DNA from: an uncultured Solirubrobacterales bacterium | GTDB taxonomy: Bacteria; Actinomycetota; Thermoleophilia; Solirubrobacterales; 70-9 | NCBI GenBank assembly: GCA_963698625.1 | Contig: CAVORK010000003.1 | Coordinates: forward strand, 411,317-475,316 | DNA: 64,000 nt | Direction of reading: 5' to 3' | Shown here: positions 26,701-54,995 of the stretch, piece after piece | Numbering within the stretch: the stretch's first letter is position 1 | How the letters are laid out: each line of letters starts with the position of its first letter | Notes under the pieces: model-generated | What the model saw: the letters and a program-made list of their open reading frames with translations, nothing else | What the model was told of the DNA's origin: nothing | Database searches by the model: none | Program-made: the position numbers and the translations under genes

Positions 26701-29700
26701 GACCTGTGTTCTCGGAACTCTCACCTGTACCCGTTCGGACTCCCTGGCCAACGGCGCCAGCTACCCCGATATCACGCTGACCGTTGACGTGGCAAACAAC
26801 GCCCCGGCCAGCGTCACCAACTCCGGCACCGTCTCCGGCGGTGGAGACCCGACGCCGAGCACCGCCAACGACCCGACGACCGTTCTGTCGACCAACCTGG
26901 TCATCAACAAGTCCCACACCGGAGACTTCCTCCAGGGCCAGACCGGCGCGCAGTACACGATCTCGGTCACCAACAACGGCCCCGACGCCTCAACCGGACT
27001 GGTCACGGTCACCGACGCCCTGCCGACCGGCCTCACCGCCACCGGCATCTCCGGTTCCGGCTGGAACTGTGTTCTCGGCACCCTGACTTGTACGCGCAGC
27101 GATTCGCTGGCCAACGGCGCCAGCTACCCCGACATCACGCTGACCGTCGACGTGGCTAACAACGCACCGGCCAGCGTCACCAACTCCGGCACCGTCTCCG
27201 GCGGCGGCGACCCGACACCGAGCACGGACGACGATCCGACCACCATCAAGAGCATCAACCTGGCGATTGCCAAGAGCCACACCGGCAACTTCCGTCAGGG
27301 CCAGACCGGTGCCACCTACATGATCGCCGTGACCAACAACGGCCCCGACGCAACCACCGGTCAGGTCACAGTCACCGACGCCCTGCCGGCCGGCCTCACC
27401 GCCACGGCAATCAGCGGCACCGGCTGGACCTGCAGCCTCGGAACCCTGACCTGTACGCGCAGCGATTCGCTGGCCAACGGCGCCAGCTACCCCGACATCA
27501 ACCTGACCGTCGACGTGGCGAACAACGCCCCGGCCAGCGTCACCAACTCGGCGACCGTCTCCGGCGGCGGCGACCCGACGCCCAGCACGGACGACGATCC
27601 GACCACCGTGCTCTCGACCAACCTGGCCATCAACAAGTCCCACACCGGCGACTTCCTCCAGGGCCAGACCGGCGCGCAGTACACGATCTCGGTCACCAAC
27701 AACGGTCCTGACGCCTCGACCGGCACGGTCACGGTCACCGACGCCCTGCCGACCGGCCTCACCGCCACGGCAATCAGCGGCACCGGCTGGACCTGTGTTC
27801 TCGGCACCCTGACTTGTACGCGCAGCGATTCGCTGGCCAACGGCGCCAGCTACCCCGACATCACCCTGACAGTTGACGTCGCCAACAATGCGCCGGCCAG
27901 CGTCACCAACTCCGGCACCGTCTCCGGCGGAGGAGACCCGACCCCGAGCACGGACGACGATCCGACCACCATCAAGAGCATCAACCTGGCGATTGCCAAG
28001 AGCCACACCGGCAACTTCCGACAGGGACAGACAGGCGCGCAGTACGCGGTGACAGTTACCAACAACGGCCCCGACGCAACTACCGGCCAGGTCTCTGTTA
28101 CCGACAGCCTGCCGACCGGCCTGACCGCCACCGCCATCGCCGGCACCGGCTGGAACTGTGTGCTCGGAACTCTCACATGTACCCGCTCGGATGTCCTGAC
28201 CAACGGTGCCAGCTACCCGAACATCGTCCTGACCGTCGACGTGGCCAACAACGCCCCGGCTTCGGTGACCAACTCCGCGACGGTCACCGGTGGCGGCGAC
28301 CCGACGCCGAGCACCGCCAACGACCCGACGACCGTTCTGTCGACCAACCTGGTCATCAACAAGTCCCACACCGGAGACTTCCTCCAGGGCCAGACCGGCG
28401 CGCAGTACACGATCTCGGTCACCAACAACGGCCCCGACGCCTCAACCGGACTGGTCACGGTCACCGACGCCCTGCCGACCGGCCTCACCGCCACCGGCAT
28501 CTCCGGTTCCGGCTGGAACTGTGTTCTCGGAACACTGACCTGTACCCGCTCGGACTCGCTGGCCAACGGCGCCAGCTACCCGGACATCATCCTGACGGTC
28601 AACGTTGCCAACAACGCCCCTGCCTCGGTTATCAACAGCTCGACCGTAAGCGGCGGCGGCGATCCGACGCCGGCCACCGACAACGACCCGACCACGATCC
28701 GCTCGATCAACCTGGCCATCGACAAGTCTCATACGGGCAACTTCACTCGCGGCCAGACTGGCGCCACCTACACGATTGCCAGTCACCAACAACGGCCCCG
28801 ATGCGACCTCCGGCCTCGTGACTGTGACTGACAACCTGCCCGCCGGCCTGACCGCCACCGCCATCGGCGGCAGCGGTTGGAGCTGCAGCCTCGGCACCCT
28901 GACCTGCACCCGTTCCGACTCCCTCGCCAACGGTGCCAGCTACCCGGACATCACCCTGACGGTCGACGTCGCGTCCAACGCGCCCTCCTCGGTGACCAAC
29001 TCCTCCACAGTCGCGGGCGGTGGAGACCCGACCCCGAGCACCGATGACGATCCGACCACGGTGATCGACCCGGCCACCCCGAACCTGATCATCAACAAGT
29101 CGCATACCGGCGACTTCACCCGCGGCCAGACCGGCGCCACCTACACGCTCGCCGTGACCAACCAGGGACCGGCAGCAACCACCGGCACCGTCACAGTCAC
29201 CGACGCCCTGCCGAGTGGCCTGACCGCCACCGCGATCGCCGGTACCGGCTGGAACTGCACGCTCGGAACGCTGACCTGCACCCGCTCCGACGTCCTGGCC
29301 AACGGCGCCAGCTACCCGGACATCACCTTGACGGTTGACGTAGCGGCGAACGCCCCCGCATCGGTGACCAACACCGGAACGGTCAGCGGCGGCGGCGACC
29401 CGACCCCGGCCAGCGACGACGATCCGACCAATATCCTCACGGCCAACCTGGCCATCGACAAGGCTCACACCGGCAACTTCCGCCAGGGCCAGACCGGCGC
29501 TCAGTACACGCTGGCAGTAACCAACAACGGACCGGCCGCAACCACCGGCACCGTCACGGTCACGGACACCCTGCCGGCTGGCCTCACCGCAACCGCGATC
29601 AACGGAACCGGCTGGAGCTGCGTCCTCGGCACCCTGACCTGCACCCGCTCGGACTCCCTGGCCAACGGCGCCAGCTACCCCGACATCACCCTGACCGTTG

Positions 29701-32700
29701 ACGTGGCAAACAACGCCCCGGCCAGCGTCACCAACTCGGGCACCGTCTCCGGCGGTGGCGACCCGACCCCGAGCACGGACGACGACCCGACCACCGTCCT
29801 GTCGACGAACCTTGCCATCGACAAGTCACACATCGGCGACTTCCGCCAGGGCCAGACCGGCGCGCAGTACACGATCTCGGTCACCAACACCGGCCCCGAT
29901 CCGACTGCTGGTCAGGTTTCGGTCACCGACGCCCTGCCGGCCGGCCTGACCGCAACCGCGATCAACGGCACCGGCTGGACCTGTGTTCTCGGCACCCTGA
30001 CCTGTACCCGCAGCGACGTACTGGCTGCGAACGCCAGCTACCCGAACATCACCCTGACCGTGGACGTGGCGAACAATGCCCCGGCAACTGTGATCCAGAG
30101 CGCGACTGTCTCCGGCGGCGGCGATCCGACGCCGAGCACGGACGACGACCCGACCACCGTCAAGAGCATCAACCTGGCGATCAACAAGTCCCATACCGGC
30201 GACTTCCGCCAGGGCCAGACCGGCGCCACCTACACGCTGGCGGTAACCAATAACGGCCCCGACGCATCGACCGGCACGGTCACAGTCACCGACGCACTGC
30301 CCGCAGGCCTGACCGCCACCGCGATCGCCGGAACCGGCTGGACCTGCACCCTCGGCACACTTACCTGCACCCGTTCGGACTCCCTGGCCAACGGCGCCAG
30401 CTACCCGGACATCAACCTGACCGTCGACGTTGCCAACAACGCGCCGGCTTCAGTGACAAACAGCGGGACCGTCTCAGGCGGCGGCGACCCGACTCCGAGT
30501 ACGGACGACGACCCGACCACTGTGCTCTCAACCAACCTGGCCATCAACAAGTCCCACACCGGCGACTTCCGCCAGGGCCAGACCGGTGCCCAGTACACGC
30601 TGGCCGTGACCAACAACGGCCCCGACGCCTCAACCGGCACGGTCACAGTCACCGACGCACTGCCAGTGGGTCTCACCGCCACCGCAATCAGCGGAACAGG
30701 CTGGACCTGTGTTCTCGGAACGCTGACTTGTACCCGTTCCGACGTCTTGGCCAACGGCGCCAGTTACCCCGACATCACCCTGACCGTCGACGTGGCCAAC
30801 AACGCCCCGGCCAGCGTCACCAACTCGGGCACCGTCTCCGGCGGTGGAGACCCGACCCCGAGCACGGACGACGACCCGACCACCGTGCTCTCGACCAACC
30901 TGGCGATCAGCAAGTCCCACACCGGCGACTTCATCCAGGGCCAGACCGGCGCCACCTACACGCTGGCCGTGACCAACAACGGCCCCGACGCCTCGACCGG
31001 CACCGTCACCGTCACCGACGCACTGCCGGCCGGCCTGACCGCAACCGCGATCAGCGGCAACCGGCTGGACCTGTGTGCTCGGCACCCTGACCTGTACCCG
31101 CTCGGACTCGCTGGCCAACGGCGCCAGCTACCCCGACATCACGCTGACCGTTGACGTCGCCAACAACGCACCGGCCAGCGTCACCAACTCCGGCACCGTC
31201 TCCGGCGGTGGAGACCCGACCCCGAGCACGGACGACGATCCGACCGCGATCAAGAGCATCAACCTGGCGATCGACAAGTCCCACACCGGCAACTTCACAC
31301 AGGGCCAGACCGGCGCGCAGTACACGATTTCGGTCAGCAACACCGGCCCCGATCCGACTGTTGGTCAGGTTTCGGTCACCGATGCCCTGCCAGTAGGCCT
31401 CACCGCCACAGCCATTAACGGCAGCGGCTGGAACTGCACGCTCGGAACCCTGACCTGTACCCGTAGCGACGTACTGGCTGCGAACGCCAGCTACCCGAAC
31501 ATCACGCTGACGGTCAATGTCGCCAACAACGCCGGCAGCCCGCTGGTCAACTCGGCGACCGTTTCCGGCGGCGGCGACCCGACCCCGTCCACCGACGACG
31601 ACCCGACTGTCGTGCGCTCGGTCAACCTCGCAATCGACAAGTCCCACACCGGAGACTTCACGCAGGGCCAGGTCGGGGCCGAGTACACGATTTCGGTCAC
31701 CAACAATGGCCCTGACAGCACGTCAGGCCAGGTCTCTGTCACGGATGCGCTGCCGAGCGGCCTGATCGCAACCGCGATCAACGGCACCGGCTGGAACTGT
31801 GTACTTGGAACGCTGACCTGCACGCGCTCCGACGTCCTGCCGGCCAGCACCAGCTACCCGGATATCACCCTGACTGTGGACGTTGCCAACAACGCGCCGG
31901 CTTCAGTGATCCAGAGCGCGACCGTTTCCGGCGGCGGAGACCCGACCCCGAGCACCGACGACGATCCGACCACGATCAAGAGCATCAACCTGGCGATCAA
32001 CAAGTCGCACACCGGCAACTTCACCCGCGGCCAGACCGGCGCCACCTACACGATTGCCGTCACCAACAACGGCCCCGACGCAACCACCGGTCAGGTCACC
32101 GTCACCGACACCCTGCCGGCAGGCCTGACCGCAACCGCTATCAACGGAACCGGCTGGAGCTGCACGCTCGGAACGCTGACCTGCACCCGCTCGGACTCCC
32201 TGGCCAACGGTGCCAGCTACCCCGACATCACTCTGACCGTCGACGTCGCAGCCAACGCGCCTTCGAGTGTCATCAACTCCGCGACCGCCTCGGGCGGCGG
32301 CGATCCGACCCCGGTCACCGACAACGACCCGACCACGGTGATCGACCCGGCCACGCCGAACCTGATCATCAACAAGTCGCATACCGGCGACTTCACCCGC
32401 GGCCAGACCGGCGCCACGTACACGCTCGCCGTGACCAACAACGGCCCGCCCGCCACCAGCGGCACCGTGACCGTCACCGACACCCTGCCGAGCGGTCTGA
32501 CCGCCACCGCGATTGCCGGAACCGGCTGGAACTGCACGCTCGGAACGCTGACCTGCACCCGCAGCGACTCGCTCGCCGCCGGCAACAGCTACCCGGACAT
32601 CACCTTGACGGTTGACGTAGCGGCGAACGCCCCCGCATCGGTGACGAACACCGGAACGGTCAGCGGCGGCGGCGATCCGACCCCGGACAGCGATGATGAC

Positions 32701-35700
32701 CAGACCAACATTCTCACGGCCAACCTGGCCATCGACAAGGCTCACACCGGCAACTTCCGCCAGGGCCAGACCGGCGCTCAGTACACGCTGGCAGTAACCA
32801 ACAACGGGCCGGCCGCAACCACCGGCACCGTCACGGTCACGGACACCCTGCCGGCTGGCCTGACCGCAACCGCGATCAACGGCACCGGCTGGAACTGCGT
32901 GCTCGGCACCCTGACCTGCACCCGCTCGGACTCCCTGGCGAACGGTGCCAGCTACCCGAACATCGTTCTGACGGTCGACGTCGCCAACAACGCCCCGGCC
33001 AGCGTCACCAACTCCGCCACCGCTTCGGGCGGCGGCGATCCCACTCCGACCACCGATAACGATCCGACCATCATCCTGTCGACCAACCTGGCCATCGACA
33101 AGGCTCACACCGGCGACTTCATCCAGGGTCAGACCGGCGCGCAGTACACGATCTCGGTCACCAACAACGGCCCCGATCCGACCGTCGGACAGGTCTCGGT
33201 CACCGACAACCTGCCGACCGGCCTGACCGCCACCGCGATCAGCGGCACCGGCTGGACCTGTGTTCTCGGAACCCTGACCTGCACGCGCTCCGATGTGCTC
33301 GCCGCCAACGCCAGCTACCCGGACATCACCCTGACTGTGGATGTCGCCAACGACGCGCCGGCAACTGTGATCCAGAGCGCGACCGTCTCCGGCGGTGGCG
33401 ACCCGACCCCGAGCACCGACGACGACCCGACCACGGTCAAGAGCATCAACCTGGCCATCGACAAGTCGCACACCGGCGACTTCCGTCAGGGCCAGACGGG
33501 TGCCCAGTACACGATCTCCGTGACGAACAATGGTCCCGACGCCTCGACCGGCCTCGTGGCGGTCACGGATGCCCTGCCGCCCGGCCTGACCGCCACCGCG
33601 ATCACCGGAACCGGCTGGACCTGCACGCTCGGAACCCTGACCTGCACCCGCTCGGACTCGCTGGCCAACGGCGCCAGCTACCCGAACATCACCCTGACTG
33701 TGAACGTCGCCAACAACGCTCCGGCTTCGGTCATCAACTCCTCCACCGTCAGCGGCGGAGGAGACCCGACTCCGAGTACGGACAACGATCCGACCGTGGT
33801 CCGCTCGATCAACCTCGCGATCAACAAGAGCCATACCGGCAACTTCACCCAGGGCCAGACCGGCGCGCAGTACACGCTCTCGGTCACCAACAACGGCCCC
33901 GATTCCTCGACCGGACTGGTCACAGTCACCGACACCCTGCCGGCCGGCCTCACCGCAACCGCGATCAACGGAACCGGCTGGAGCTGCGTGCTCGCCACCC
34001 TGACCTGCACCCGCTCCGACGTCCTGGCCAACGGCGCCAGCTACCCCGACATCACCCTGACAGTCGACGTCGCCAACAACGCCCCGGCCAGCGTCACCAA
34101 CTCCGGCACCGTCTCCGGCGGCGGCGATCCGACTCCGAGCACCGACGACGATCCGACCACCATTGACACCGACGTCAATCTCGCCATCAACAAGAGCCAT
34201 ACAGGTGACTTCACCCAGGGACAGACCGGTGCCTCGTACACCCTGGCCGTCACCAACAACGGTCCGAGTGCGACAACCGGACTGGTCACAGTCACCGACA
34301 CCCTGCCGGCCGGCCTCACCGCAACCGCGATCAACGGAACCGGTTGGAGCTGCGTGCTCGCCACCCTGACCTGCACCCGCTCCGACGTCCTGGCCAACGG
34401 CGCCAGTTACCCGACGATCACCCTGACCGTCGACGTTGCCAACAACGCCCCGGCGTCAGTCACCAACTCCGGCACAGTCACCGGCGGTGGAGACCCGACC
34501 CCGAGCACAGACGACGACCCGACCACGGTCAAGAGCATCAACCTCGCGATCGACAAGTCCCACACCGGCAACTTCACCCGCGGCCAGACCGGCGCCACCT
34601 ACACAATCGCCGTCACCAACAACGGTCCCGACGCAACCACCGGTCAGGTCACAGTCACCGACACCCTGCCGGCCGGCCTGACCGCAACCGCGATCACCGG
34701 AACCGGCTGGAACTGCACGCTCGGAACACTGACCTGCACCCGCTCGGACTCCCTGGCCAACGGCGCCAGCTACCCGGACATCACGATGACCGTCAACGTC
34801 GCAGCCAACGCTCCGTCGAGCGTCATCAACTCCGCGACGGTCTCCGGCGGCGGCGACCCGACCCCGGCCACCGATAACGATCCGACCACGGTGATCGACC
34901 CGGCCACCCCGAACCTGACGATCAACAAGTCCCACACCGGCAACTTCCGCCAGGGCCAGACCGGAGCCACCTACACGCTGGCCGTGACCAACAACGGCCC
35001 GCCCGCCACCACCGGCACCGTCACAGTCACCGACACCCTGCCGGCCGGCCTCACCGCAACCGCGATCAACGGAACCGGCTGGAGCTGCGTCCTCGGCACC
35101 CTGACCTGCACCCGCTCGGACTCCCTGGCCAACGGCGCCAGCTACCCGCCGATCACCCTGACCGTCGACGTTGCCAACAACGCCCCGGCGTCAGTCACCA
35201 ACTCCGGCACAGTCACCGGAGGCGGCGACCCGACCCCGGATACCTCGGACGACCCGACCACGGTGCTCTCAACCAGCCTGGCGATCAACAAGTCCCATAG
35301 CGGTGACTTCACCCAGGGCCAGACCGGCGCGCACCTACACGCTCTCGGTCACCAACAACGGTCCCGATTCCTCGACCGGACTGGTCACAGTCACCGACAC
35401 CCTGCCGGCAGGCCTCACCGCAACCGCGATCAACGGAACCGGCTGGAACTGCGTGCTCGCAACCCTGACCTGCACCCGCTCCGACGTCCTGGCCAACGGC
35501 GCCAGCTACCCCGACATCACCCTGACCGTCGACGTCGCCAACAACGCCCCGGCTTCAGTCACCAACTCCGGCACAGTCACCGGCGGCGGAGACCCGACCC
35601 CGAGCACCGACGACGACCCGACCACGGTCAAGAGCATCAACCTCGCGATCGACAAGTCCCACACCGGCAACTTCACCCGCGGCCAGACCGGCGCCACCTA

Positions 35701-38700
35701 CACAATCGCCGTCACCAACAACGGTCCCGACGCAACCACCGGTCAGGTCACAGTCACCGACACCCTGCCGGCCGGCCTGACCGCAACCGCGATCACCGGA
35801 ACCGGCTGGAGCTGCACGCTCGGAACACTCACCTGCACCCGCTCGGACTCCCTGGCCAACGGCGCCAGCTACCCGGACATCACGATGACCGTCAACGTCG
35901 CAGCCAACGCTCCGTCGAGCGTCATCAACTCCGCGACGGTCTCCGGCGGCGGCGACCCGACCCCGGCCACCGATAACGATCCGACCACGGTGATCGACCC
36001 GGCCACCCCGAACCTGACGATCAACAAGTCCCACACCGGCAACTTCCGCCAGGGCCAGACCGGCGCCACCTACACGCTGGCGGTGACCAACAACGGCCCG
36101 CCCGCCACCACCGGCACCGTCACCGTCACCGACACCCTGCCGGCAGGCCTCACCGCAACCGCGATCAACGGAACCGGCTGGAGCTGCGTCCTCGGCACCC
36201 TGACCTGCACCCGCTCGGACTCCCTGGCCAACGGCGCCAGCTACCCCGACATCACCCTGACCGTCGACGTCGCCAACAACGCACCGGCCAGCCGTCACCA
36301 ACTCCGGCACAGTTACCGGAGGCGGCGATCCGACCCCGGATACCTCCGACGACCCGACCACGGTGCTCTCGACCAACCTGGCGATCAACAAGTCCCATAC
36401 CGGTGACTTCACCCAGGGCCAGACCGGCGCGCACCTACACGCTCTCGGTCACCAACAACGGCCCCGATTCCTCGACCGGACTGGTCACAGTCACCGACAC
36501 CCTGCCGGCCGGCCTCACCGCCACCGCGATCAACGGAACCGGCTGGAACTGCGTGCTCGGCACACTGACCTGCACCCGCTCCGACTCCCTGGCCAACGGC
36601 GCCAGCTACCCGCGACGATCACCCTGACGGTCGACGTCGCCAACAACGCCCCGGCGTCAGTCACCAACTCCGGCACAGTCACCGGCGGCGGAGACCCGAC
36701 CCCGAGCACCGACGACGACCCGACCACGGTCAAGAGCATCAACCTCGCGATCAACAAGTCCCACACCGGTGACTTCACCCAGGGCCAGACCGGTGCGCAC
36801 GTACACGATCACGGTTTCGAACAACGGGCCGGATTCGACTATCGGCCTCGTCACCGTGACCGACACCCTGCCCGCCGGCCTGACCGCCACCGCGATTGGC
36901 GGAACCGGCTGGAGCTGCACGCTGGCCACACTCACCTGCACCCGCTCCAACTCGCTGGGGATCGGCAACAACTACCCGACGATCACCATGACGGTCGATG
37001 TGGCGGCCAACGCTCCGGCATCGATCATCAACACCGCCACAGTCTCCGGCGGCGGCGATCCGACCCCGGCCACCGATGACGATCCGACGACTGTCATTCC
37101 GACAGCACCCGATGTGAACCTCTCGATCGAGAAGTCACACACCGGCAACTTCACCCAGGGCCAGGTCGGAGCCACCTACACGATCCAGGTCACGAACGAC
37201 GGGCCCGACGCCACCACCGGTCTGGTGACGGTGACGGACAACCTGCCCGCCGGCCTGACCGCGACAGCGATCACCGGAACCGGCTGGAACTGCGTGCTCG
37301 CCACCCTGACCTGCACCCGCTCCAACACCCTCGGCGCGGGCAACGACTACCCGCCGATCACCCTGACTGTGAACGTCGCGGCGAACGCACCGGCATCGGT
37401 CATCCAGCGGGCGACCGTCAGCGGAGGCGGCGATCCGACCGACAGCGAAGATGAGGATCCGACCACGATCGTGCCCACCGGCAGCGACGTCAACCTTGCG
37501 ATCGACAAGTCCCACACCGGCAACTTCACCCAGGGCCAGACCGGAGCCACCTACACGATCCAGGTCAGCAACAACGGACCTGACTCGACGAGCCGGTCAG
37601 GTATCGGTCACCGACTCCCTGCCCGCAGGCCTGACCGCAACCGCCATCGGCGGCAAGGGCTGGAGCTGTGCTCTGGCCACCCTGACCTGCACCCGCTCGA
37701 ACACGCTGGGGACCGGCAACAACTACCCGCCGATCACCCTCACGGTTGACGTGGCAGCCGATGCCCCGGCATCGGTGGTCAACAGCGCCACCGTCTCCGG
37801 CGGTGGCGATCCGACCCCGGCTACCGATAACGATCCGACCACGATCGAGCCCGAAACGCTGGACGTCAACCTCTCGATCGAGAAGTCACACACCGGCGAC
37901 TTCGCCCAGGGCGAGATCGGCGCGACCTACTCGATCGTCGTTTCCAACGACGGCCCCGACGCAACGGCCGGTCTGGTCACCGTGACCGACACCCTGCCGA
38001 CCGGCTTGACCGCGACGGCGATCACCGGTAGCGGTTGGAACTGTGTGCTCGCCACCCTGACCTGCACCCGTTCGAACACGCTCTCGGTCGGCAACGACTA
38101 CCCGACGATCACGCTGACCGTCGATGTTGCCGCTGACGCACCGGCCTCTGTGGTCCAGCGCGCCACTGTCACCGGTGGCGGCGATCCCGACCCGACCCCG
38201 GTAGACGACCCGACCACGATCATCCCCTCGGACCTCACCGCGGACCTGGCGCTGACGAAGTCGGCACCTGCCACCGCGAAGGTCGGAGACCAGTTCGCCT
38301 ACACGATGGTCGTCGAGAACAAGGGTCCGGCCACGGCGACCGATGTCGAGATCGCCGACCCGCTTCCGACGGGGCTCACCTTCGTCTCTTCGGCTGACTG
38401 CAACGCGGTCATGGTCTGCAACCTCGGATCCATTGCGTCGGGCGACAGCAGGACGGTTGAAGTGACCGTCGAAGCCACCGATGTGACAGCCGGCACGACG
38501 GTCGTCAACACGGCGGTTGTCAACGCCGAGGAGTTCGATCCGAACCCCGACGACAACACTGCCACTGCTGAGACCGACATCGATCCGTTGTCCGATCTCA
38601 AGGTGACCAAGACCGGTCCCGCGTCCATCCAGGCCGGCAGCACAATCGGCTGGGAAATCCTGGTTGAAAACGCCGGTCCGAGCGCGGCCGAGGACGTCGA

Positions 38701-39724
38701 AATGGACGACCCGCTGCCCGCCGGACTGACCAACCCCACGGTCACGACCGAACAGGGAACCTGCGATCTCACCGTCAGCTGCTCACTCGGCACGATCCCG
38801 GCGAACGGTTCGGTGCTCGTCCTCATTGAAGCTGACATCCCGGCCGACGCAGTTGTCGGAAGCACGGTCAGCAACACGGTCACGGTGACTACCACCACTG
38901 ATGACAAGGATCCTGATGACAACACGTCTACTTCGACCACGACTGTGTCGCCGCCCACTCCGGGCAAGGCGGAGATCGCGATCACCAAGAAGCTCAGCAA
39001 CCAGAAGGTCACCCTGGGTGACATCGTCACCTTCAAGCTGACCGCCAGAAACAGCGGCGACGCTGCGGCGAAGAACGTCGTGATCAAGGACACCCTGAGC
39101 TCCAAGCTGAAGTACGTCAGCTCGAAGATCCCGGGCGGCAACTGCTCGGTCCAGGGCGCAACCGTCACCTGCAAGGTGTCGAAGCTGGCCGCCGGCAAGT
39201 CAGTGACCGCGACGATCAAAGCGCGGGCGATCGAGCCTGGGCAGGTGGCCAATACCGGCACAATCCAGGCCGACGACAGCAAGATCACGAAGCGCAAGTC
39301 GACTATCAAGTTCCCGGTCGACAAGGGCCAGACGAAGATCGGCATCGTCAAGACCGCCCTACGCAAGAAGACCAGGGATGGCAGCCGGGTCTCGTTCCGT
39401 ATCGAGATCACCAACCTGACCAACCAGGCAGCTACGGATGTCGAGATCTGCGACATCCTGCCGGGCAAGACCACGATCATCCGGTCCAAGGAAGGACGCA
39501 AGATGTCCGGAGGCAAGCTCTGCTGGACAATCGACTACCTGCCCGGTGGAGCCGTGCGGGGTGCATGGGTGACCCTCAGGGTTGACAACTTCACCTCACT
39601 GGATGAGCTGACCAACATCGGAACGGTCACTGCCGGCAATACGAAGGGCAAGAAGAAGTCGTCGGCAAAGGTGAAGCTGGTCCAGCGGACCAGCTCGGCA
39701 CGAGGCGGCGGTGTCACCGGTTAG
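20710..39724 (+). CDS. giant secreted surface protein B (~6330 aa). Order: signal peptide, head type 1, Kelch-like propeller, DUF11 domains, 35 x 121-aa repeats, 4 DUF11 domains (the last two lysine-rich). About 9 frame breaks in this sequence.
   Basis: The ORF opens at 20692. TTG 20710 gives MKSGNRLVVRFTAFIAVLVAVAAFAFGTQSATA, which is residue-for-residue parallel to the gene A N-terminus. ORF pieces 20692..22776, 22697..28831 (2044 aa), 28776..31154, 31075..35976, 35171..36406, 36363..37079, 36769..37749 and 37451..39724 are contiguous in protein sequence. Indels lie at about 22708, 28781, 31060, 35332, 36292, 36432, 36612 (+2), 36798 and 37592. DUF11-like signatures include ..LSVTKSNNPGPLAILRPGDGIQYTMVVENTGTTPATNATLTDLVPAQV... 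Confidence 0.8.
23435..24216 (+). other. Kelch-like six-bladed beta-propeller region within gene B (the equivalent region in gene A is ~14270-15060)
   Basis: Six ~45-aa repeats of the pattern GGAL.TDG..[IV]YAL.G.G...F..Y.....W. Examples: GGALTTDGTYVYALRGDGKPDMYRYDPGTDAWTTMAPLPQNVKD and GGALTTDGTNIYGLQGNGQTVFWKYTVATDTWSTLPATSAQVKE. Confidence 0.65.
25442..38242 (+). repeat. tandem array of 35 x ~363-bp coding repeats (121-125-aa CX6C unit) inside gene B, with higher-order duplications
   Basis: Unit starts are at 25442, 25805, 26168, 26531, 26894, 27257, 27620, 27983, 28346, 28709, 29082, 29445, 29808, 30171, 30534, 30897, 31261, 31624, 31987, 32359, 32722, 33085, 33448, 33811, 34177, 34540, 34912, 35275, 35639, 36011, 36375, 36741, 37117, 37492 and 37868. 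The array ends where ..DLALTKSAP.. begins at 38243. Confidence 0.9.
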
Positions 39725-40445
39725 CAGGATTCTGAGCGCCGCCCTGGTCCTGTCAGCACTCTGGCTGGGCCCGGTCGGCGTGGCTTCAGCCGGCACCACG
39801 GCCAACTACACGGGCGTGACCGGCAAGAGCTCCTGGTCGGCGCGCATCATGATTCGGACGAAGGCCTGGAGCCGGCCGGGCAACCGGGGTCGTGTCCGGA
39901 CGACCCTGCAGACGCAGTCAACCTGGGCCAAGGGTCCCCAGCACCTTCTGGTTCTGAACTCGGCCCAGGTGAAAGGCAGGACCTGGATCAAGGTCCGCCT
40001 GGCCTCCCGGCCCAACGCCGCTTCGGCCTGGATCCCTGCGAACCGCGCCCGGGTGGTCCGGAATCCGTGGCGGGTTCTGATCTCGAGGGGGGACCGCAAG
40101 GTGACTGTTTTCAAGTCGGGCAAGCCGGTGGTCAGGTTCCGGTCCGTTATCGGTGCCCCTGAGACTCCGACGCCCAAGGGTCTCTTCGCGATCTACGAAA
40201 AGGTGAGGCAGGTGCCTTCAAACGGCTTCCTCGGCCCGTTCGCTCTACACCTGACCGCGCATTCGAACGTGCTCGACAATTACGGGGGAGGCCCCGGGCG
40301 GGTCGCAATCCATGGCCGCGACGGCCTGTCCCTGCTCGACCCGCTCGGCACGGCACGTTCCCACGGCTGCATTCGGGTCAACAACAGCAGGATCAGGTTC
40401 CTGGCGAAGAAGCTGCCACTCGGCACCCCGGTGAGGATCCGCTAG
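39711..40445 (+). CDS. secreted L,D-transpeptidase (YkuD domain) with an N-terminal SH3-like region, overlapping the end of gene B
   Basis: GTG at 39711 with GAGG at 39702-39705. It overlaps the gene B stop (39722-39724) by 14 nt. Signal peptide ..ILSAALVLSALWLGPVGVASA. Catalytic motif ..IHGRDGLSLLDPLGTARSHGCIRVNN.. (the SHGC[IV]R signature of YkuD enzymes). Confidence 0.85.
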   Translation: MSPVSRILSAALVLSALWLGPVGVASAGTTANYTGVTGKSSWSARIMIRTKAWSRPGNRGRVRTTLQTQSTWAKGPQHLLVLNSAQVKGRTWIKVRLASRPNAASAWIPANRARVVRNPWRVLISRGDRKVTVFKSGKPVVRFRSVIGAPETPTPKGLFAIYEKVRQVPSNGFLGPFALHLTAHSNVLDNYGGGPGRVAIHGRDGLSLLDPLGTARSHGCIRVNNSRIRFLAKKLPLGTPVRIR

Positions 40446-40516
40446 GCACTGCCGGAGGGCGGTACTCGGCTGGTCCGCGCAATTGGCCGGATTCCTGCCG
40501 TTTCGTCCGAGTCTTG

Positions 40517-40525
40517 CCGATTCAG
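40517..40525 (+). promoter_or_regulatory. conserved CCGATTCAG motif, copy upstream of gene C
   Basis: Exact 9-mer 213 nt upstream of ATG 40738. It is preceded by GAGTCT (40509-40514, an xAxxxT -10-like hexamer) with the same 2-nt gap seen upstream of gene B. Confidence 0.4.
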
Positions 40526-40737
40526 GGAAAATCCCGTACCTTCACTTGATTGGTGAAAAAGGGAGACGGGTGGGAATTCCGTGAGCACCGGCCTCAACGC
40601 CGGGATGGAATCCGCAAAAACGCCCTGAAGACTGCGAATGCTCACCGAGCAGTCATCCTGGCCCCTGAAGGCTTTCCCACTACTTTCGAGAATCCAAGGG
40701 TAATGTTGAGGTCTTTCGGAAGGTTTTGGCGTCTGTG

Positions 40738-43700
40738 ATGTCCAAAAGGAAAATCTCGGAGAACAAATTGAAGTCCGTCGCCCGTACTGCCATCCGTTTC
40801 GCGCCAGTCATTGCGGTTCTCGCCGCTGGCCTGGCGGCGGCTGCTCCCGCTCAGGCGGATCGTGCTTTCAGCTTGCGTTTCTCGGCTACTGAAGCCGGAA
40901 GCATCGGCGGCATCGCCAACAGCAACATGAGCTGCTCCACGGCCAGTGGCGATTTTGGAGCCAGCACCTGTGTGGATGCCCGCAACGCCGCCGTCACTGA
41001 CTCGGTCGACAGCTCTACCAACTGGCGGAACAACAACGCGCACACGATGACTTACGTCGATGTGGATGGCGTGGCTTCAACCTTCAACTCGTCGTCGGCG
41101 AATCAGTCGCTTCCTGCGGGCTCGACGATTCTCTATGCAGCCCTCTATTGGGGAGGGCACTATGCCGGTGCCACCAGCCCCGCCAATCAGAACATTCGCG
41201 ACCAGGTGAAGTTCAGGGTCCCCGGTGCTACGGGCTATCAGACAGTTACTGCTTCCACTGTTGATGACGGGGTCGGCGGCAATGCCGGGCGGTATCAGGC
41301 ATTCGCCAATGTGACCAGTCTGGTGCAAACGCTGCCGAATTCCGGCAACGGGACATACACCGTCGCCGACATTCAGTCTGCGGTCGGTAGCGACCGCTAC
41401 TCGGGATGGAGCCTGATCGTCTCCTACAAGAACCCCTCCGAGACCGTAAAGAACATGACGATCTATGACGGCCTGGTTTCGATTTCAGGAACGACGACGG
41501 CCGACATTCCGATTTCCGGCTTCCTCACTCCGCCAGCCGGTCCGGTCAACGCTGAGGTGGGCTTCGTGGCCTGGGAAGGTGACCTGGCCCTGATCGGTGA
41601 TCGGGCGCAGCTCAATGGTCAGTTCCTGTCTGACGCGCAGCATCCGTCGAACAACTTCTTCAATTCCAGAATCTCCCAGAACGGAGTCCTGTTCACCGAT
41701 CGAAATCCGTCGTACCCGAATTCACTCGGTATGGATGCGCTCCGTACTCCGGCCCCGGCGGGGTCGGTCACCAACTCGCAGACTTCGGCGACGGTGAGGG
41801 TCCGCAGTGACGGTGATTTCTACCTGCCAGGGGTCATCACTTTCCAGGTCGAGGTCTACTCACCGAAGGTTGACCAGCTGAAGTCGGTGGTCGATGACAA
41901 CGGCGGTGTTGTCGAGCAAGGCGACACCCTTACCTACAAGATCTCCGGCAAGAACAATGGCCTGGACGGCACGGCCAACTTCGTGCTGAGAGACCCGATC
42001 CCGCCGAACACGACTTACGTGCCCGGTTCGATCAACGTGGTCAAGAATACGAATGCTTCCACCGGAGTCCGGACTGACGCGTTCGCTGACGACATCGCCG
42101 AGTTCGACTCTCCCAACAACCGGATCATCGCTCGCCTCGGTGAAGGATCAAATGCCTCAACCGGAGGCAACGTCAAGCCAGGCAATGAATACGAGGTGAC
42201 CTTCAAGGTCAAGGTCAATGGACCGAGTCCGAACCCGGTGGCAAACGACACCGTCCTGACCAATACGGCGACCGCAAGCTTCCTGAGCCAGACGACGTCA
42301 AGCCCGCTGAACACAGCTTCGACGGTGGATGCGACCGTCAAGACTCCGGACTTGACGATCAACAAGTCGCATTCCGGAAACTTCCGCCAGGGCCAGACGG
42401 GCGCCCAGTACTCCCTCGCGGTGACCAACCAGGGCCCGGCCGGCACAAACGGCCAGGTCAGCGTCACCGACAACCTGCCGACCGGCCTGACCGCCACCGC
42501 CATTTCCGGCACCGGCTGGAACTGCGTGCTCGCATCTCTGACCTGCACCCGCTCGGACGTCCTGGCCGCCAACGCCAGCTACCCGCCGATCACGATGACC
42601 GTCAATGTGGCCAACAACGCGCCTGCTTCGGTGATCAACAGCGGAACGGTGAGCGGCGGTGGAGACCCCACCCCGAGCACGGCCAACGATCCGACCACCA
42701 TCCTCAGCACCAACCTGGTCATCGACAAGTCCCATACCGGTGACTTCCGCCAGGGACAGACGGGTGCCACCTACACGCTGGCCGTGACCAACAGCGGCCC
42801 GGACCCGACAACCGGAACCGTCACCGTCACCGACGCCCTGCCCGCAGGCCTCACAGCCACCGCGATCAGCGGAACCGGCTGGAACTGCGTGCTCGCAACT
42901 CTGACCTGCACCCGCTCGGACGTCCTGGCAGCCAACGCCAGCTACCCGCCGATCACGATGACCGTCAATGTGGCCAACAACGCGCCGGCATCGGTGATCA
43001 ACGGCGGAACGGTGAGCGGCGGCGGCGATCCGACCCCGAGCACCGACAACGATCCGACCACGATCAAGTCGATCAATCTCGTGATTGCCAAGAGCCATAC
43101 CGGCAACTTCCGCCAGAGCCAGACCGGCGCCCAGTACACGATCGCGGTCACCAATAGCGGACCCGATCCGACCCAGGGCCAGGTCTCAGTCACCGACACC
43201 CTGCCGACCGGCCTGACCGCCACCGCGATCAGCGGCACCGGCTGGAACTGCACGCTCGCAACCCTGACCTGCACCCGCTCGGACGTCCTGGCCGCCAACG
43301 CGAGTTACCCGAACATCACGATGACCGTGAACGTGGCCAACGACGCGCCGGCCAGCGTCGTCAACTCCGGCACCGTTACCGGCGGTGGAGACCCCACCCC
43401 GAGCACGGCCAACGATCCGACCACGATCCTCAGCACCAACCTGGTCATCGACAAGAGTCATAGCGGCAACTTCACCCAGGGCCAGACCGGGGCTCACGTA
43501 CACACTCTCGGTCACCAACAGCGGCCCCGACGCCTCGACCGGCCTCGTGACCGTGACGGACTCGCTGCCGGCCGGTCTGACCGCCACCGCAATAGGCGGC
43601 ACCGGCTGGAACTGCACCCTTGCCACGCTGACCTGCACCCGAAGCGACGCACTGGCCGCCAACGCCAGCTACCCGAACATCACCCTGACCGTCAACGTCG

Positions 43701-46700
43701 CGAACAACGCACCGGCCAACGTTGTCAACTCCGGAACCGTTACCGGCGGCGGAGACCCAACGCCTTCGACCGATGTCGATCCGACCGACATCGGTACCGA
43801 TGTGAATCTGGTCATCAACAAGTCCCACAGCGGCAACTTCCGCCAGGGCCAGACCGGCGCCCAGTACACGATCGCGGTGACCAACAACGGACCGAGCGCC
43901 ACAACCGGACAGGTCTCGGTCACCGATGCGCTTCCCACCGGGCTGACCGCAACTGCGATCAGCGGCACCGGCTGGAACTGCACCCTCGCCACACTCACCT
44001 GCACCCGTAGTGACGTGCTCGCAGGAAACGCCAGCTACCCGACGATCACGATGACCGTGGACGTGGCCAACGACGCCCCGGGCTCGGTTATCAACTCGGC
44101 CGCGGTCTCCGGCGGCGGAGACCCGACCCCGAGCACCGACAACGACCCGACCACGATCCTTTCGACCAACCTGGTCATCGACAAGGCCCACAGCGGCAAC
44201 TTCCGTCAGGGACAGACCGGCGCCCAGTACACACTCTCGGTCACCAGCAACGGCCCCGATGCCTCGACCGGACAGGTCTCGGTCACCGACGCCCTGCCCG
44301 CAGGGCTGACCGCCACCGCCATCTCAGGCTCTGGCTGGAACTGCGTGTTCGCAACCCTGACCTGCACCCGTTCGGACGTCCTGGCCGCCAACGCCAGCTA
44401 CCCACCGATCACGATGACCGTGAATGTGGCCAACAACGCGCCGGCGTCGGTGATCAACAGCGGAACTGTCTCCGGCGGCGGAGACCCGACCCCGAGCACC
44501 GACAACGACCCGACCACCATCCTTTCGACCAACCTGGTCATCGACAAGAGCCACAGCGGCGACTTCACCCAGGGCCAGACCGGGGCTCAGTACACGCTCG
44601 CGGTCACGAACAATGGCCCCGACCCCACCGTCGGCCAGGTCTCGGTCACCGACAACCTGCCGGCCGGTCTCAGCACAACCGCGATCAGCGGCACCGGCTG
44701 GAACTGCACGCTTGCCACGCTCACCTGCACCCGCTCTGACGTGCTCGCGGCAAACGCCAGCTACCCACCGATCACGCTAACCGTCAACGTCGCCAACAAC
44801 GCGCCGTCGTCAGTCATCAACTCCGGCACGGTCAGCGGAGGCGGAGACCCGACCCCGAGCACAGACGACGATCCGACCACGGTCAAGAGCGATCAACCTC
44901 GCGATCAACAAGTCCCACACCGGCAACTTCACCCAAGGCCAGACAGGTGCGACCTACACCCTGCTGGTGACCAATAGCGGCCCTGATGCCACAAACGCGC
45001 CGGTTGCCGTAACTGATGCCCTGCCCTCCGGCCTGACCGCGACCGACATCGCCGGCCCGGGCTGGAACTGCGTGCTCGCAACTCTGACCTGCACCCGAAG
45101 CGACGCCCTCGCGGCCAACGCCAGCTACCCGAACATCACCCTGACCGTCAACGTCGCCAACAACGCACCGGCGAACGTCATCAACTCCGGCACCGTTACC
45201 GGCGGTGGCGACCCGACGCCCAACACCGATGTCGATCCGACCGACATCGGTACTGACGTCAACCTCGCGATCGACAAGTCCCACAGCGGCAACTTCCGTC
45301 AGGGCCAGACCGGCGCCCAGTACACGATCGTCGGTGACCAACAACGGACCGAGCGCCACAACCGGCCAGGTGTCGGTCACCGACGCCCTGCCCACCGGGC
45401 TGACCGCAACTGCGATCAGCGGCACCGGCTGGAACTGCGTTTTCGCAACACTGACCTGCACCCGCAGTGACGTACTGGCTGCCAACGCGAGCTACCCGCC
45501 GATCACGATGACCGTGAACGTCGCGAACAACGCCCCGGCGTCGCTCGTCAATTCGGCGTCAGTTTCAGGCGGCGATGACCCCACCCCGAGCACGGACGTC
45601 GACCCGACCACGGTCCTGTCAACCAACCTGGTCATCAACAAGTCCCATAGCGGCGACTTCCGCCAGGGCCAGACCGGCGCTACTTACACGCTCTCTGTCA
45701 CCAACAGCGGCCCCGACGCCTCGACCGGACAGGTCACAGTCACCGACTCCCTGCCGTCGGGCCTCACCGCGACCAACATCGACGGCCCGGGCTGGAACTG
45801 CGTACTCGCAACCCTGACCTGCACCCGTTCGGACTCGCTGGCCGCCAACGCCAGCTACCCGCCGATCACCCTGACCGTCAACGTCGCCAACAACGCGCCG
45901 TCGTCAGTCACCAACTCCGGCACGGTCAGCGGAGGCGGCGACCCGACCCCCAACACCGATGACGACCCGACCACGATCCGCTCGATCAACCTCGCGATCA
46001 ACAAGTCCCACACCGGCAACTTCACCCAGGGCCAGAGCGGAGCGAGCTACACGATCTCGGTCACCAACAACGGCCCCGACCCCACCGTCGGCCAGGTCTC
46101 GGTCACCGACAACCTGCCGGCCGGTCTCAGCGCAACCGCAATCAGCGGCAGCGGCTGGAACTGCGTGCTGGCCACGCTCACCTGCACCCGGTCGGACTCG
46201 CTGGTCGCCAATGCCAGCTACCCGCCGGTCATCATCACTGTAGATGTCGCAGGCAACGCCCCGGCATCAGTGGTCAACAGCGCCACCGTCACAGGCGGTG
46301 GAGACCCGACGCCGAACACCGACGACGACCCGACCACGATCGAGGAATCGGTGGCCGACGTCGAGATCACCAAGACCGCCAACCCGACCACCGTCTCCTA
46401 CGGCGACACGGTCACCTACACGCTGAAAGCCAAGAACAACGGTCCCGGCAAGGCCAACAACGTCACCATCACCGACCCGCTGCCGTCCGGCGTCAGCTTC
46501 GTATCCGCCGACGCCCCATGCCTCAACGCTTCGGGCACGGTCACCTGCCAGCTTGGAACGCTCCAGCCCGGCGATGAGGTCACGCTTCAGGTCACGGTCA
46601 AGGTCGACCCGGCGGCGCCGAGCGACCCGAACCTCGAGCACCTGCTCGACGTCCAGAAGGCCGAAGCACAGATCGATCTGAATCCCGGCGAGCAGAAGAC

Positions 46701-47904
46701 CGTCTCGGTCACCTGCCCGAGTGGCTACTTTGCCTCCGACGGCTCGGTCCGGATCGACCAGATCGACCACGGAACCGGTGACTGGCCGACGCAGCAGGTA
46801 CTCGAGTCCAGGGCCAGTTCGCTCGACACCTGGCAGGGCACCGTAAAAAACACCGCCACCGGTCGCGCCCAGGCCAAGATCTTCGCCGTCTGCATCAAGC
46901 AGACGACCAACCAGATCGACGGACACACCCATGATCTGATCGTCTCGGCACCGGTTACGGTCACCGCGGCGGTTCCTGCCGGCCTCCACGAGGAGACCCT
47001 CGCCTGCCCCGCAGGTACGGTTGCGATCCAGCCCGGCTTCAGCTCGACCGCTCCCGCCGACCTCGTCTACAGCGAGCCTGAAGGCAGCGGCTGGAAGTTC
47101 AGGCTTGACGTGAGCGCCGATGCCGACGTCACCTTCTCGATCCGCTGCATGTCGAGGCAGACCACCTCAAGCAGCGGCCACGACCATAACCTCGATCTAC
47201 AGCACATCGTTGCCGAGGTCACGGTCGAAGGCATGACCGTCAACGAGGCCCAGCTCACCTGCTCCGATGGCTACAAGGGCATCGTCGCCGACATGGACCT
47301 CGACCCCGGACTGGTCAGCCTCGGTAGCGACCCGCGTCCGGTGACCAGGGCCTTCAAGCTCTACAACCCGACCATGGGCCCGCTCAAGGCACGCATCAGC
47401 CTGCTTTGCCTGGGCAACATGACGAGCGGCCACAACATCGGTCCGGTTCAGATCGTCAATACCGCCTACATCACGACCACCTCCAACGACGAGACCCCGG
47501 CCAACAACCAGTCCTCGGCGACCATCACGGTGAACGCCACCGGCACCAACAACCCGATTCCGAACCCGGACCCGGACAAGCCGGTCGTCAACAACCCGAT
47601 CGGCATGAGCATCGGCGGAAGCGATGTTGCCCTGCGTGGCAACCGCGCCCTGGTGACGGTGAACTGCTCAGGTGCCTGCTCCGGCAAGGCCAGGCTGTTC
47701 TCAGCCAGGACGGTCAAGGTCGGCAAGAAGAAGGTCGGCAAGGGCACTCTGCTCGCCAAAGGCACCTTCCGCTTCAACTCGGCCGGCAAGCGCAAGCTGA
47801 AGCTGAAGGTCAACCGGACCGGTCGCAAGGTCCTGAGCAGAGGCGGCAAGGCCCTGCTCAAGCTCTCCTCGGGAGAGAAGAAGCTGGTGCGCATCAAGCG
47901 CTGA
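40738..47904 (+). CDS. giant secreted surface protein C (~2385 aa). Order: signal peptide, head type 2, DUF11 domain, 11 x 121-aa repeats, shared C-terminal module. About 3 frame breaks.
   Basis: ATG at 40738 (the ORF track opens at TTG 40726). Signal peptide ..ARTAIRFAPVIAVLAAGLAAAAPAQA. ORF pieces 40726..44010, 43385..44977, 44967..45470 and 45205..47904 are contiguous in protein sequence, with indels at about 43495, 44891 and 45330. The C-terminal 515 aa are closely similar to the end of gene A. Confidence 0.8.
42349..46356 (+). repeat. tandem array of 11 x 363-bp coding repeats (121-aa CX6C unit) inside gene C
   Basis: Unit starts are at 42349, 42712, 43075, 43438, 43805, 44168, 44531, 44895, 45261, 45625 and 45988. 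Spacing is 363 bp, or 364-367 where there are indels or a 1-aa longer linker. Confidence 0.9.
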
Positions 47905-54100: not shown

Positions 54101-54995
54101 CGGCCAGATCGCGATCCAGCCCGGCTTCAACTCGACCGCCCCGGCCGACCTCGTCTACAGCGAACCCGAGGGCAACGGCTGGAAGTTCATCCTCGACCTC
54201 AAGGCCGACGGCTGACGTCACCTACTCGATCCGCTGCATGACCCGCCAGGTCTCGGTTGTCAACGGCCATACCCATGACCTCAAGCTTGAGCACCTGGTC
54301 AACGAGGTCACGATCCAGGGCAACACGGTCAACGAGGCCCAGCTCACCTGCGCCGACGGCTACAAGGGCATCGTCGCCGACATGGACCTCGACCCCGGAC
54401 TGGTCAGCCTCGGCAACGATCCGCGTCCGGTGACCAGGGCCTTCAAGATCTACAACCCGACCGATCGGGCCCGCTCAACGCAAGGATCAGCCTGCTCTGC
54501 CTGGGCACGAGGACCGGTGGCGAGCACCTGCCGCCAAAGGTTCTGGTCAACAGCGCTCACATCACGACGACCACGTTCGAGACCGTCACGAGCAACAACA
54601 TGTACTCGGCCACGGTCATCGCGGAGGACACCGACAACCACACCCCGGTGACTCCGAAGCCTCCGGTCAAGCCGACCCCGAACAACCCGATCGGCATGAG
54701 CATCGGCGGAAGTGACGTCGCCTTCCGCGGCAGCGAGGGTCCTGGCCACGGTCAAGTGCACCGGAGCCTGCTCACGGCAAGGCCAGGCTGGTCTCGGTCA
54801 AGACGGTCAAGGTCGGCAGGAAGAAGTTCCGCAGGGGCACCGTGCTCGCCAAGGGCAGCTTCAGGTTCAACACGGCCGGCAGGCGCAAGCTGAACCTCAA
54901 GGTCAACGAAGAAGGGCCGCAAGGTCCTCAAGCAGACCCCCAAGGCCCTGCTGAAGCTCTCCTCAGGCAAGCAGAAGCTCGTCCGCATCCGGTAG
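48102..54995 (+). CDS. giant secreted surface protein D (~2295 aa). Order: signal peptide, multiple DUF11-type domains (no 121-aa repeats), shared C-terminal module. At least 10 frame breaks, concentrated after 53.6 kb.
   Basis: TTG at 48102. Signal peptide MSPAIKTPLSLLAAILALLMGLAFASTAQA. ORF pieces 48102..50054, 49756..50736, 50885..51487 and 51387..53660, plus short pieces to 54995, are contiguous in protein sequence. DUF11-like units include ..DLEIDKSAPAVVESQATFDYTMKVTNNGPDPATGVVINDPLPAGLTFISSGDC... The end, ..GRRKLNLKVNEEG / RKVLKQTPKALLKLSSGKQKLVRIR (stop 54993-54995), parallels the tails of genes A and C. Confidence 0.7.

Follow-up and report, generated by a model that had tools for sequence, protein, structure and literature searches.

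A putative adhesin-tail and L,D-transpeptidase module of Thermoleophilia that points to sortase-free fastening of surface proteins to the cell wall

The window analysed here, a stretch of 64,000 nucleotides from an uncultured Solirubrobacterales bacterium (assembly GCA_963698625.1, contig CAVORK010000003.1, positions 411,317 to 475,316), carries the genes of four giant CLIPPER proteins side by side, designated A, B, C and D. Immediately downstream of gene B lies a gene encoding a YkuD-type L,D-transpeptidase (below, the enzyme). These two genes form a conserved two-gene module of Thermoleophilia (Actinomycetota), best described as an adhesin-tail and L,D-transpeptidase module, of which no earlier description was found in the literature searched, and their pairing points to a putative, so far undescribed and sortase-free fastening of surface proteins to the wall.

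Gene B (20692-39724, + strand; approximately 6340 codons in the list of open reading frames (ORFs) and their translations) encodes a predicted secreted giant CLIPPER/DUF11 fibrillar adhesin and ends with the codons CGA GGC GGC GGT GTC ACC GGT TAG (R-G-G-G-V-T-G-stop), the C-terminus of the protein reading ...ARGGGVTG. The enzyme gene (39711-40445, + strand; 244 aa, 25 kDa) begins with a GTG codon at 39711-39713 and, since the stop codon of gene B occupies 39722-39724, the two genes overlap by 14 nt. A Shine-Dalgarno-like GAGG (39702-39705, + strand), read from the sequence, lies 5 nt 5' of the GTG, and a search for + strand terminators and promoters gave none between the two genes or 3' of them. 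The pair is predicted to be translationally coupled. A sequence-only reading of this DNA had described the same secreted YkuD enzyme, with this start codon, GAGG and overlap, and both the sequence and the Pfam search agree with it; it had called the genes almost certainly co-translated, but the correct term is translationally coupled. Its statement that gene B lacks LPXTG is likewise borne out by a motif search of the window, in which no LPXTG with a hydrophobic tail occurs and the sole LPXTG-like match lies on the antisense strand of gene D. The sortase TLxTC motif is absent from all window ORFs of at least 120 aa.

DUF11, to which a recent study gave the name CLIPPER, has been shown to be a CnaA-like domain that builds the stalk of fibrillar adhesins and contains an isopeptide bond; the bond-forming residues are not present in every DUF11 domain, and sorting domains are listed among its neighbours in the same survey (bioRxiv 10.1101/2025.04.25.650565). 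By its predicted architecture, gene B is a textbook adhesin of this kind, composed of a signal peptide, a head, approximately 35 repeats and a terminal domain. The N-terminus holds a signal-peptide-like segment, read directly from the translation, and the head domain matches no Pfam family. The stalk is a tandem array of a 363-nt (121-aa) CLIPPER repeat (25442-38070, + strand; 34.6 copies, 78% matches, score 11289 in Tandem Repeats Finder), and the last 757 aa of the protein match DUF11 in six stretches (E = 6e-93); a match to the TIGR01451 repeat was also obtained. In the present assembly the gene is broken over at least seven reading frames (ORF list and translations). These breaks are most likely indel errors of the assembly, because a housekeeping gene of the window, encoding a DEAD-box helicase (59215-60524, + strand), is likewise split over three reading frames, and because the gene B ortholog in a Joint Genome Institute (JGI) metagenome assembly from another source is an intact gene of 2635 aa. 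Pseudogenisation of gene B was considered and is unlikely on the same two grounds. Genes A (about 11500-20398), C (40726-47904) and D (48102 to about 55000), all on the + strand, are also frame-broken; the assembly appears to contain frequent indel errors, and ORF-based gene calls in the window appear unreliable.

The stalk of gene B leads to a terminal CLIPPER-like beta-sandwich domain (39338-39679, + strand) with a conserved Cys pair (VCD...CW). An AlphaFold2 (AF2) model of the last 140 aa contains nine strands at a predicted local distance difference test score (pLDDT) of about 80-90, and its best match in the PDB is the CLIPPER domain 9ifr (E = 3.6e-7; template modelling scores 0.67/0.75). 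In an alignment of 51 partner proteins, by which we mean the VTG-ending proteins encoded next to relatives of the enzyme, both cysteines (C41 and C65) are invariant. Their V-C-D ... C-W setting is unlike the C..LGTLTC pattern of the gene B stalk repeats. The domain is followed by a flexible C-terminal tail, VQRTSSARGGGVTG (39680-39721, + strand), whose 14 residues are unstructured in the model (no secondary structure; mean pLDDT 55 over the last 10 residues). Recognition by the enzyme may partly depend on the terminal domain.

The enzyme matches the Pfam YkuD family (PF03734; E = 4.6e-19, 69.9 bits with a cut-off of 23.4) over residues 121-243, equivalent to profile positions 3-146 of 146, and has 1483 homologues at E<=1e-5. 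Its translation begins with a signal-peptide-like segment of 27 aa, MSPVSRILSAALVLSALWLGPVGVASA (39711-39791, + strand), ending ...VASA before a Gly, in which a lipobox cysteine is absent; residues 1-30 have low pLDDT, and an equivalent hydrophobic segment is present in the homologues. An all-beta domain follows (residues 41-118; 39831-40064, + strand), modelled as seven strands with pLDDT >90, which gave no Pfam match even at E<=5 and in which W92, L97, R100-P101-N102 and W107 are invariant in the homologue alignment. This domain might serve for docking to the wall or to the partner protein. The catalytic domain (residues 121-243, the Pfam stretch; 40071-40439, + strand) adopts the YkuD fold in the AF2 model of the enzyme (pLDDT 84.9), and its nearest solved structure is Bacillus subtilis YkuD 1y7m (profile E = 2.5e-12; Foldseek E = 2.3e-8), followed in Foldseek by Ldtfm and LdtMt1/2. 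The catalytic residues are encoded by CAT at 40311-40313 (His201) and TGC at 40368-40370 (Cys220, in the S-H-G-C-I-R motif), both on the + strand; H201, S217, H218, G219, C220 and R222 are invariant across 36 aligned homologues and are all intact in the window enzyme. The enzyme has the HxG...SHGC(I)R active site of B. subtilis YkuD, Ldtfm and LdtMt1-5, which form 3-3 cross-links. Unlike the present enzyme, these proteins have no dedicated partner gene, and the N-terminal domain of B. subtilis YkuD is a LysM, whereas the present subfamily has the 80-residue beta domain without a family match. Compared with B. subtilis YkuD the subfamily also has invariant insertions, S-N-V-L-D-N-Y-G-G-G-P-G (containing LDNYGGGPG) before the catalytic His and D-P-L-G before SHGC (window 40245-40300). 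The model has low confidence in the loop at about residues 191-193, and this loop could form a lid over the substrate site.

The pairing of the enzyme with a VTG-ending protein is conserved. Orthologs of the enzyme at 82, 76 and 65% identity each lie directly 3' of a giant DUF11 protein ending in RGGGVTG, in unlike surroundings, with UbiA upstream of one pair and an aminotransferase downstream of another. When one genome was scanned for each GTDB species, 322 relatives of the enzyme emerged, of which the best 80 (47-65% identity) were examined with their loci. All 80 loci belong to Thermoleophilia (Solirubrobacterales, Gaiellales) or to metagenome-assembled genomes (MAGs) labelled only to class or phylum within Actinomycetota, and those of the cultured Solirubrobacter soli DSM 22325 and S. 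phytolaccae are among them. An automatic test, which asked for an upstream ORF adjoining the enzyme gene, ending in VTG-stop and either at least 150 aa long or cut by the contig end, was passed in 54 of these 80 loci; many of the loci come from MAGs with apparent frameshift breaks, which hide and fragment partners. One further pairing was recovered where the VTG tail is concealed behind a frameshift, bringing the total to about 55 of 78 informative loci. Among the others, the terminal domain is present with its frame broken in three loci, a VTG protein lies 1-4 kb away from the enzyme in four, and the enzyme is at a contig edge in two. In the tree of the enzyme, paired members occur in almost every clade, tail type following clade; at least three MAGs carry two copies of the enzyme subfamily, and in one of them both copies are paired, with differing tail types. 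The adjacency is not confined to one genome, an outcome that would have counted against the anchoring idea according to the sequence-only reading: it is kept across Thermoleophilia down to 47% enzyme identity, in varied contexts and with varied partner builds.

The association was also approached independently of the enzyme, by scanning metagenome contigs for a DNA pattern encoding GGGVTG followed by TAG. This gave 120 stretches, approximately 113 of them noise. Six matches end an ORF fitting the terminal-domain profile and a seventh is a short contig-edge fragment with a strand-plus-linker tail; none of the other long ORFs of the scan fit that profile. The enzyme is encoded directly downstream of all seven true tails. 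When a large protein database was searched with a profile built from the terminal domain and the tail, nine short gene calls matched, all of which (9/9, too few for a census) end in VTG. Within 1.3 Mb of loci there are 2651 stop-to-stop ORFs of 200 aa or more; 67 of them have a VTG end, all 67 in enzyme loci, with a chance expectation that we estimate at about one.

The tail itself was compared in 56 distinct sequences. Positions -3, -2 and -1 are V, T and G in all 56, with the stop codon directly after (in gene B, 39713-39724, + strand), and this Val-Thr-Gly end is the proposed recognition and cleavage motif. The preceding positions are less strict, with G (45) or P (7) at -4, G (36) or T (10) at -5, P (21) or G (20) at -6 and R (27) or K (7) at -7, and the linker between the last domain and VTG consists of 8-14 residues rich in P, G, A and R. 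GGVTG, TPVTG and TGVTG are distinguished as tail classes. The distance from the partner stop codon to the enzyme start ranges from -86 to +88 nt and beyond, comprising 30 overlaps, 15 gaps of 0-30 nt and nine larger gaps. In the 34 distinct pairs with an overlap of at most 4 nt or with a gap, synonymous codons are used for each of the three residues: GTC, GTG or GTT for V, ACC, ACG, ACA or ACT for T, and any of the four Gly codons for G. Because the codons vary where the genes barely overlap or do not overlap at all, selection acts on the VTG peptide and not on the start region of the enzyme gene, and the same variation rules out the motif as an artefact of an overlapping start or ribosome-binding site. 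The data further show that the signal has to sit at the free C-terminus and to end in Gly. Two other readings of the tail were rejected: a programmed frameshift fusing adhesin and enzyme, since the enzyme has its own signal peptide and gaps reach 88 nt or more in many loci, and a ubiquitin-like activation of the C-terminal Gly, given that a secreted protein is concerned, with which no ATP-dependent machinery is associated. In locus L082 (about 7880-7906) the C-terminus of a partner containing six CLIPPER-type domains reads ...GRPGGAGG instead of ...GGVTG, owing either to natural variation of the motif or to an error in sequencing.

These data also bear on the simplest explanation of the pair, namely chance adjacency or a functionless inherited synteny in which VTG is a by-product of the overlapping enzyme start. 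Several YkuD paralogs are found in actinobacterial genomes, and in 18 of 52 distinct pairs the overlap exceeds 4 nt, the GGT-GTC codons there also encoding the GTG start. Against this stand the invariance of V-T-G with varied codons in the 34 pairs with little or no overlap, the differing flanking genes, the seven out of seven in the reverse scan and the excess of VTG ends over chance. The comparative data refute this explanation, which we regard as extremely improbable, and a functional link between the enzyme and gene B is, by comparative genomics, strongly backed.

The partner proteins are much more diverse in their N-terminal parts than at their ends. DUF11 is found in the last 400 residues of 50 of 54 partners, and the terminal domain plus tail is the same across partners despite different heads, which include giant CLIPPER arrays, Big_9, cadherin-like domains, DUF5979 and pAdhesive_15. 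Partners of the Solirubrobacter clade are small (approximately 530 aa): a signal peptide and a choice-of-anchor A domain (TIGR04215, E about 1e-48) come first, then a Pro/Thr linker, a single DUF11 and the end ...GGGVTG. Five such loci were seen, among them that of S. soli DSM 22325 (L020, 6253-7830), a cultured strain whose 525-aa partner makes a tractable model. In other bacteria the anchors of choice-of-anchor A proteins are of the LPXTG, PEP-CTERM or type IX secretion system (T9SS) kind, hence the name (bioRxiv 10.1101/2023.03.06.531300), and the CLIPPER plus VTG unit stands here in the usual place of the anchor signal.

The comparisons and models establish the gene pair and its conservation, a motif without exception, a flexible end and a complete set of catalytic residues; that the adhesin is covalently attached, that its tail acts as donor and that a wall amine accepts it is our inference. 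It is quite possible, if somewhat short of probable, that the dedicated YkuD enzyme of the module covalently fastens the adhesin C-terminus to peptidoglycan, the tail mimicking the stem tetrapeptide. More tentatively, the enzyme may act as a sortase analogue, which would cleave the Thr-Gly bond via a Cys thioester and ligate the adhesin Thr to the amine of peptidoglycan diaminopimelate. According to this scheme the adhesin would be secreted by the Sec pathway, and the dedicated, translationally coupled L,D-transpeptidase would be secreted as well and would read the tail end ...(G/P)(G/T)-Val-Thr-Gly-COOH. G-V-T-G would fill the donor site normally taken by L-Ala-D-iGlu-mDAP-D-Ala (iGlu, isoglutamate; mDAP, meso-diaminopimelate), with the achiral C-terminal Gly as a substitute for D-Ala and the terminal carboxylate free, as in the tetrapeptide. 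Cys220 would then attack the Thr carbonyl, Gly would depart, and the thioester would be resolved by the free side-chain amine of wall diaminopimelate. Gly is, to our knowledge, the sole ribosomal residue able to occupy the D-Ala pocket, and cultured Solirubrobacter and Conexibacter have meso-diaminopimelate walls. The reversal of the usual reaction, with the protein as acyl donor, is suggested because the tail carries no amine.

The proposed scission has a counterpart on muropeptides. In Escherichia coli, LdtD installs Gly at stem position 4 and the YkuD-fold DpaA (LdtF/YafK) cleaves the mDAP-Gly bond (PMC8263019). YkuD-fold sites thus accept an end made of an L-centre and Gly-COOH, forming and cleaving the type of bond proposed to be cleaved here, the Gly being there on a muropeptide and not on a protein. 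The existence of such hydrolytic enzymes, together with the carboxypeptidase activity of LdtCd2 (PMC12729407), gives some ground for supposing that the present enzyme only trims the tail, removing or exchanging the terminal Gly as an L,D-carboxypeptidase would, without transfer to the wall. The transpeptidase-type Arg of HGCIR is, however, missing from DpaA, a detaching amidase (PMC12729407); because Arg222 is invariant in the present subfamily, the enzyme is predicted to be of the transpeptidase type rather than a DpaA-like amidase. There is also no evident purpose in taking one Gly off an adhesin of 6000 residues, and we consider trimming very unlikely.

A scheme closer to that of E. coli Lpp would leave the roles of donor and acceptor as documented: the stem tetrapeptide would be the donor, a Lys in the foot of the adhesin or its N-terminal amine the acceptor, and VTG only a docking signal. 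This is the sole documented chemistry for protein tethering by YkuD enzymes (PMC12729407). The E. coli pairs of LdtA/LdtB/LdtC (ErfK/YbiS/YcfS) with Lpp and the Dickeya pairs of Ldt03/Ldt84 with Lpp/OutB combine, as here, a YkuD-fold Cys-His enzyme with an extreme C-terminal signal, and the expected outcome, a covalent protein-peptidoglycan link, is shared. The last strand of the terminal domain is also Lys-rich in the clade of the window (NTKGKKKSSAKVKL), and a basic residue is frequent at position -7. That basic residue, however, is mostly Arg, which is no known acceptor, and known C-terminal acceptors have Lys last or penultimate (PMC12729407): the substrates of LdtA/B/C and Ldt03/84 end in Lys-Arg or Lys-Lys, the Lys epsilon-amine being the acceptor, whereas Lys is found in none of the 56 tails within the last 2 or the last 5 residues, in 10 within the last 10 and in 25 within the last 20. 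The Lpp-like scheme fits poorly, because the invariant V, T and G offer no amine and the nearby Lys is not conserved. The enzyme also falls far short of the NCBIfam equivalog models for LdtA-E (PRK10260, 19.4 bits with a cut-off of 583; LdtE, 16.9 with 480; PRK10190, 15.2 with 517), and the Gram-negative enzymes, from diderm hosts, are not encoded beside their substrates, unlike the present enzyme, which is encoded immediately downstream in a member of Thermoleophilia. This scheme is decidedly unlikely. The sequence-only reading had tied the enzyme to gene B as a sortase-independent anchoring device, a link that the conserved pairing supports, but the chemistry it proposed, with a lysine-rich foot of B as the site of attachment, finds no support in the tails.

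The scheme with the adhesin as donor resembles that of sortase A with LPXTG and of the class C pilus sortases, which are also Cys-His transpeptidases, act on secreted adhesins of isopeptide-type Ig-like domains with a C-terminal ...T-G motif, cleave between Thr and Gly, use a wall amine and, in the case of pilus sortases, are often encoded beside the substrate. In contrast to sortase substrates, the present motif is the very end of the protein, with no hydrophobic segment and basic tail after it; a single Gly would leave instead of an anchor peptide of 30 residues, no lipid II involvement is implied, and the enzyme has the YkuD fold, unrelated to that of sortases. Brucella Ldt4 (Alphaproteobacteria) and Coxiella Ldt2 are YkuD paralogs specialised in protein-wall tethering instead of cross-linking, as the present enzyme would be. 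Their acceptors are N-terminal Gly/Ala amines or internal Lys of beta-barrel proteins and lipoproteins (PMC12729407; PMC8263019), and they differ from the present module in having no C-terminal motif, no gene pairing and a diderm envelope.

Several points weigh against covalent fastening through the tail. We know of no YkuD enzyme that uses a protein as acyl donor, and Thr, at the "position 3" site, bears very little resemblance to diaminopimelate. The protein tethering documented for YkuD enzymes is without exception Gram-negative/diderm, with a protein amine (of a C-terminal or internal Lys, or of the N-terminus) as acceptor for the diaminopimelate carbonyl (PMC12729407). Lacking a membrane-retention segment, a soluble substrate might be lost by diffusion before the enzyme captures it. 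The pairing frequencies come from the 80 loci nearest the window enzyme and may not generalise to the whole family, and gene linkage alone does not separate anchoring from trimming or local wall remodelling. Finally, a Gaiellales clade of eight loci, together with a few scattered loci, has no VTG partner; therefore, the enzyme can work without an adjacent VTG protein. The Gaiellales clade shares conserved downstream genes (families present in 7-8 loci) and looks like an orphan or re-purposed branch.

The partner-less clades fit the view that enzyme and adhesin have no covalent enzyme-substrate relation, the enzyme making ordinary 3-3 cross-links or remodelling the wall locally for a large adhesin, and VTG being read otherwise, by a C-terminus-binding protease or chaperone or, non-covalently, by the N-terminal domain of the enzyme. 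The catalytic domain, a typical YkuD nearest to that of B. subtilis, agrees with this view. A side observation bears on it as well: in Conexibacter stalactiti KCTC 39840 a 599-aa gene resembling those of penicillin-binding proteins (PBPs; STFK and KTG motifs, the former of the SxxK type) is inserted between the VTG CLIPPER protein, which ends at 5870, and the enzyme (L088, 5980-7779), overlapping the enzyme start by 4 nt and linking the module to wall synthesis. This insertion, however, was seen in that locus only, out of all loci compared, and no conserved third gene that could read the tail was found beside the pair (downstream, in the loci compared). The view also leaves unexplained the exact placement of the motif at the free C-terminus and its ever-present achiral last residue, as well as a pairing that outlasts domain shuffling of the partners and duplication within genomes. 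We consider it unlikely.

The Thr carbonyl of one adhesin might instead be joined to a Lys of another CLIPPER protein, so that fibres would be built as in pili. CLIPPER has the CnaA-like fold known from Gram-positive pilins (bioRxiv 10.1101/2025.04.25.650565), and the window contains four giant CLIPPER proteins next to each other. Elsewhere, however, most modules have a single partner and no neighbouring CLIPPER genes, and no conserved pilin-type Lys motif was seen in the partner alignment; polymerisation of this kind is highly improbable.

Covalent surface display has so far been explained by sortases in monoderm bacteria and by L,D-transpeptidases acting on a protein amine (lysine or N-terminus) in diderms. 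Our literature search found nothing relevant on a VTG or GGVTG sorting motif or on L,D-transpeptidase-based anchoring in Gram-positives, nor was an amine-free VTG-COOH end with a partner L,D-transpeptidase on CLIPPER proteins found in the literature searched. If covalent fastening of the VTG tail is true, the pair would extend protein anchoring by L,D-transpeptidases to Actinomycetota, in Thermoleophilia, an abundant and barely studied soil lineage, and would represent a third, evolutionarily independent solution to covalent wall sorting and the first protein acyl donor for the YkuD family. The sequence rule of a CLIPPER domain followed by VTG-stop would allow putative wall-anchored proteins to be annotated in Thermoleophilia genomes. 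Carbapenems and copper, inhibitors of L,D-transpeptidases, could strip adhesins from such bacteria, and, if the reaction is confirmed, the tail and enzyme would be of biotechnological interest as a minimal three-residue C-terminal ligation tag and a small peptide ligase.

The other giant proteins of the window have a different C-terminus. A very basic domain of about 150 aa is common to the C-termini encoded by genes A, C and D (19949-20395, 47452-47901 and 54543-54992, + strand; A and C are 82% identical over it) and has the pattern ...FSARTVKVGKKKV...LVR(V/I)(R/K)R or, in its longer form, ...CSGKA(K/R)LFSARTVKVGKKKV.KGTLLAKGTFRFNSAGKR.LKLKVNR.GRKVL...LVR(V/I)(R/K)R. None of the three ends in VTG and none has a partner enzyme, B being the sole protein of the locus with a VTG tail, and the suggestion of the sequence-only reading that anchoring by the enzyme extends to the tails of A, C and D is not upheld. 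The basic domain may be a second and different wall- or surface-retention device, unrelated to the VTG tail of B. Between the enzyme gene and gene C lies a non-coding gap of 280 nt (40446-40725), in which no + strand terminator-like site was found and which presumably holds the gene C promoter. On the opposite strand of the gene B stalk, TTG-initiated ORFs of 117-118 aa recur every 363 nt or multiples thereof (26398-34397, - strand); these are mechanical echoes of the tandem repeats and not genes.

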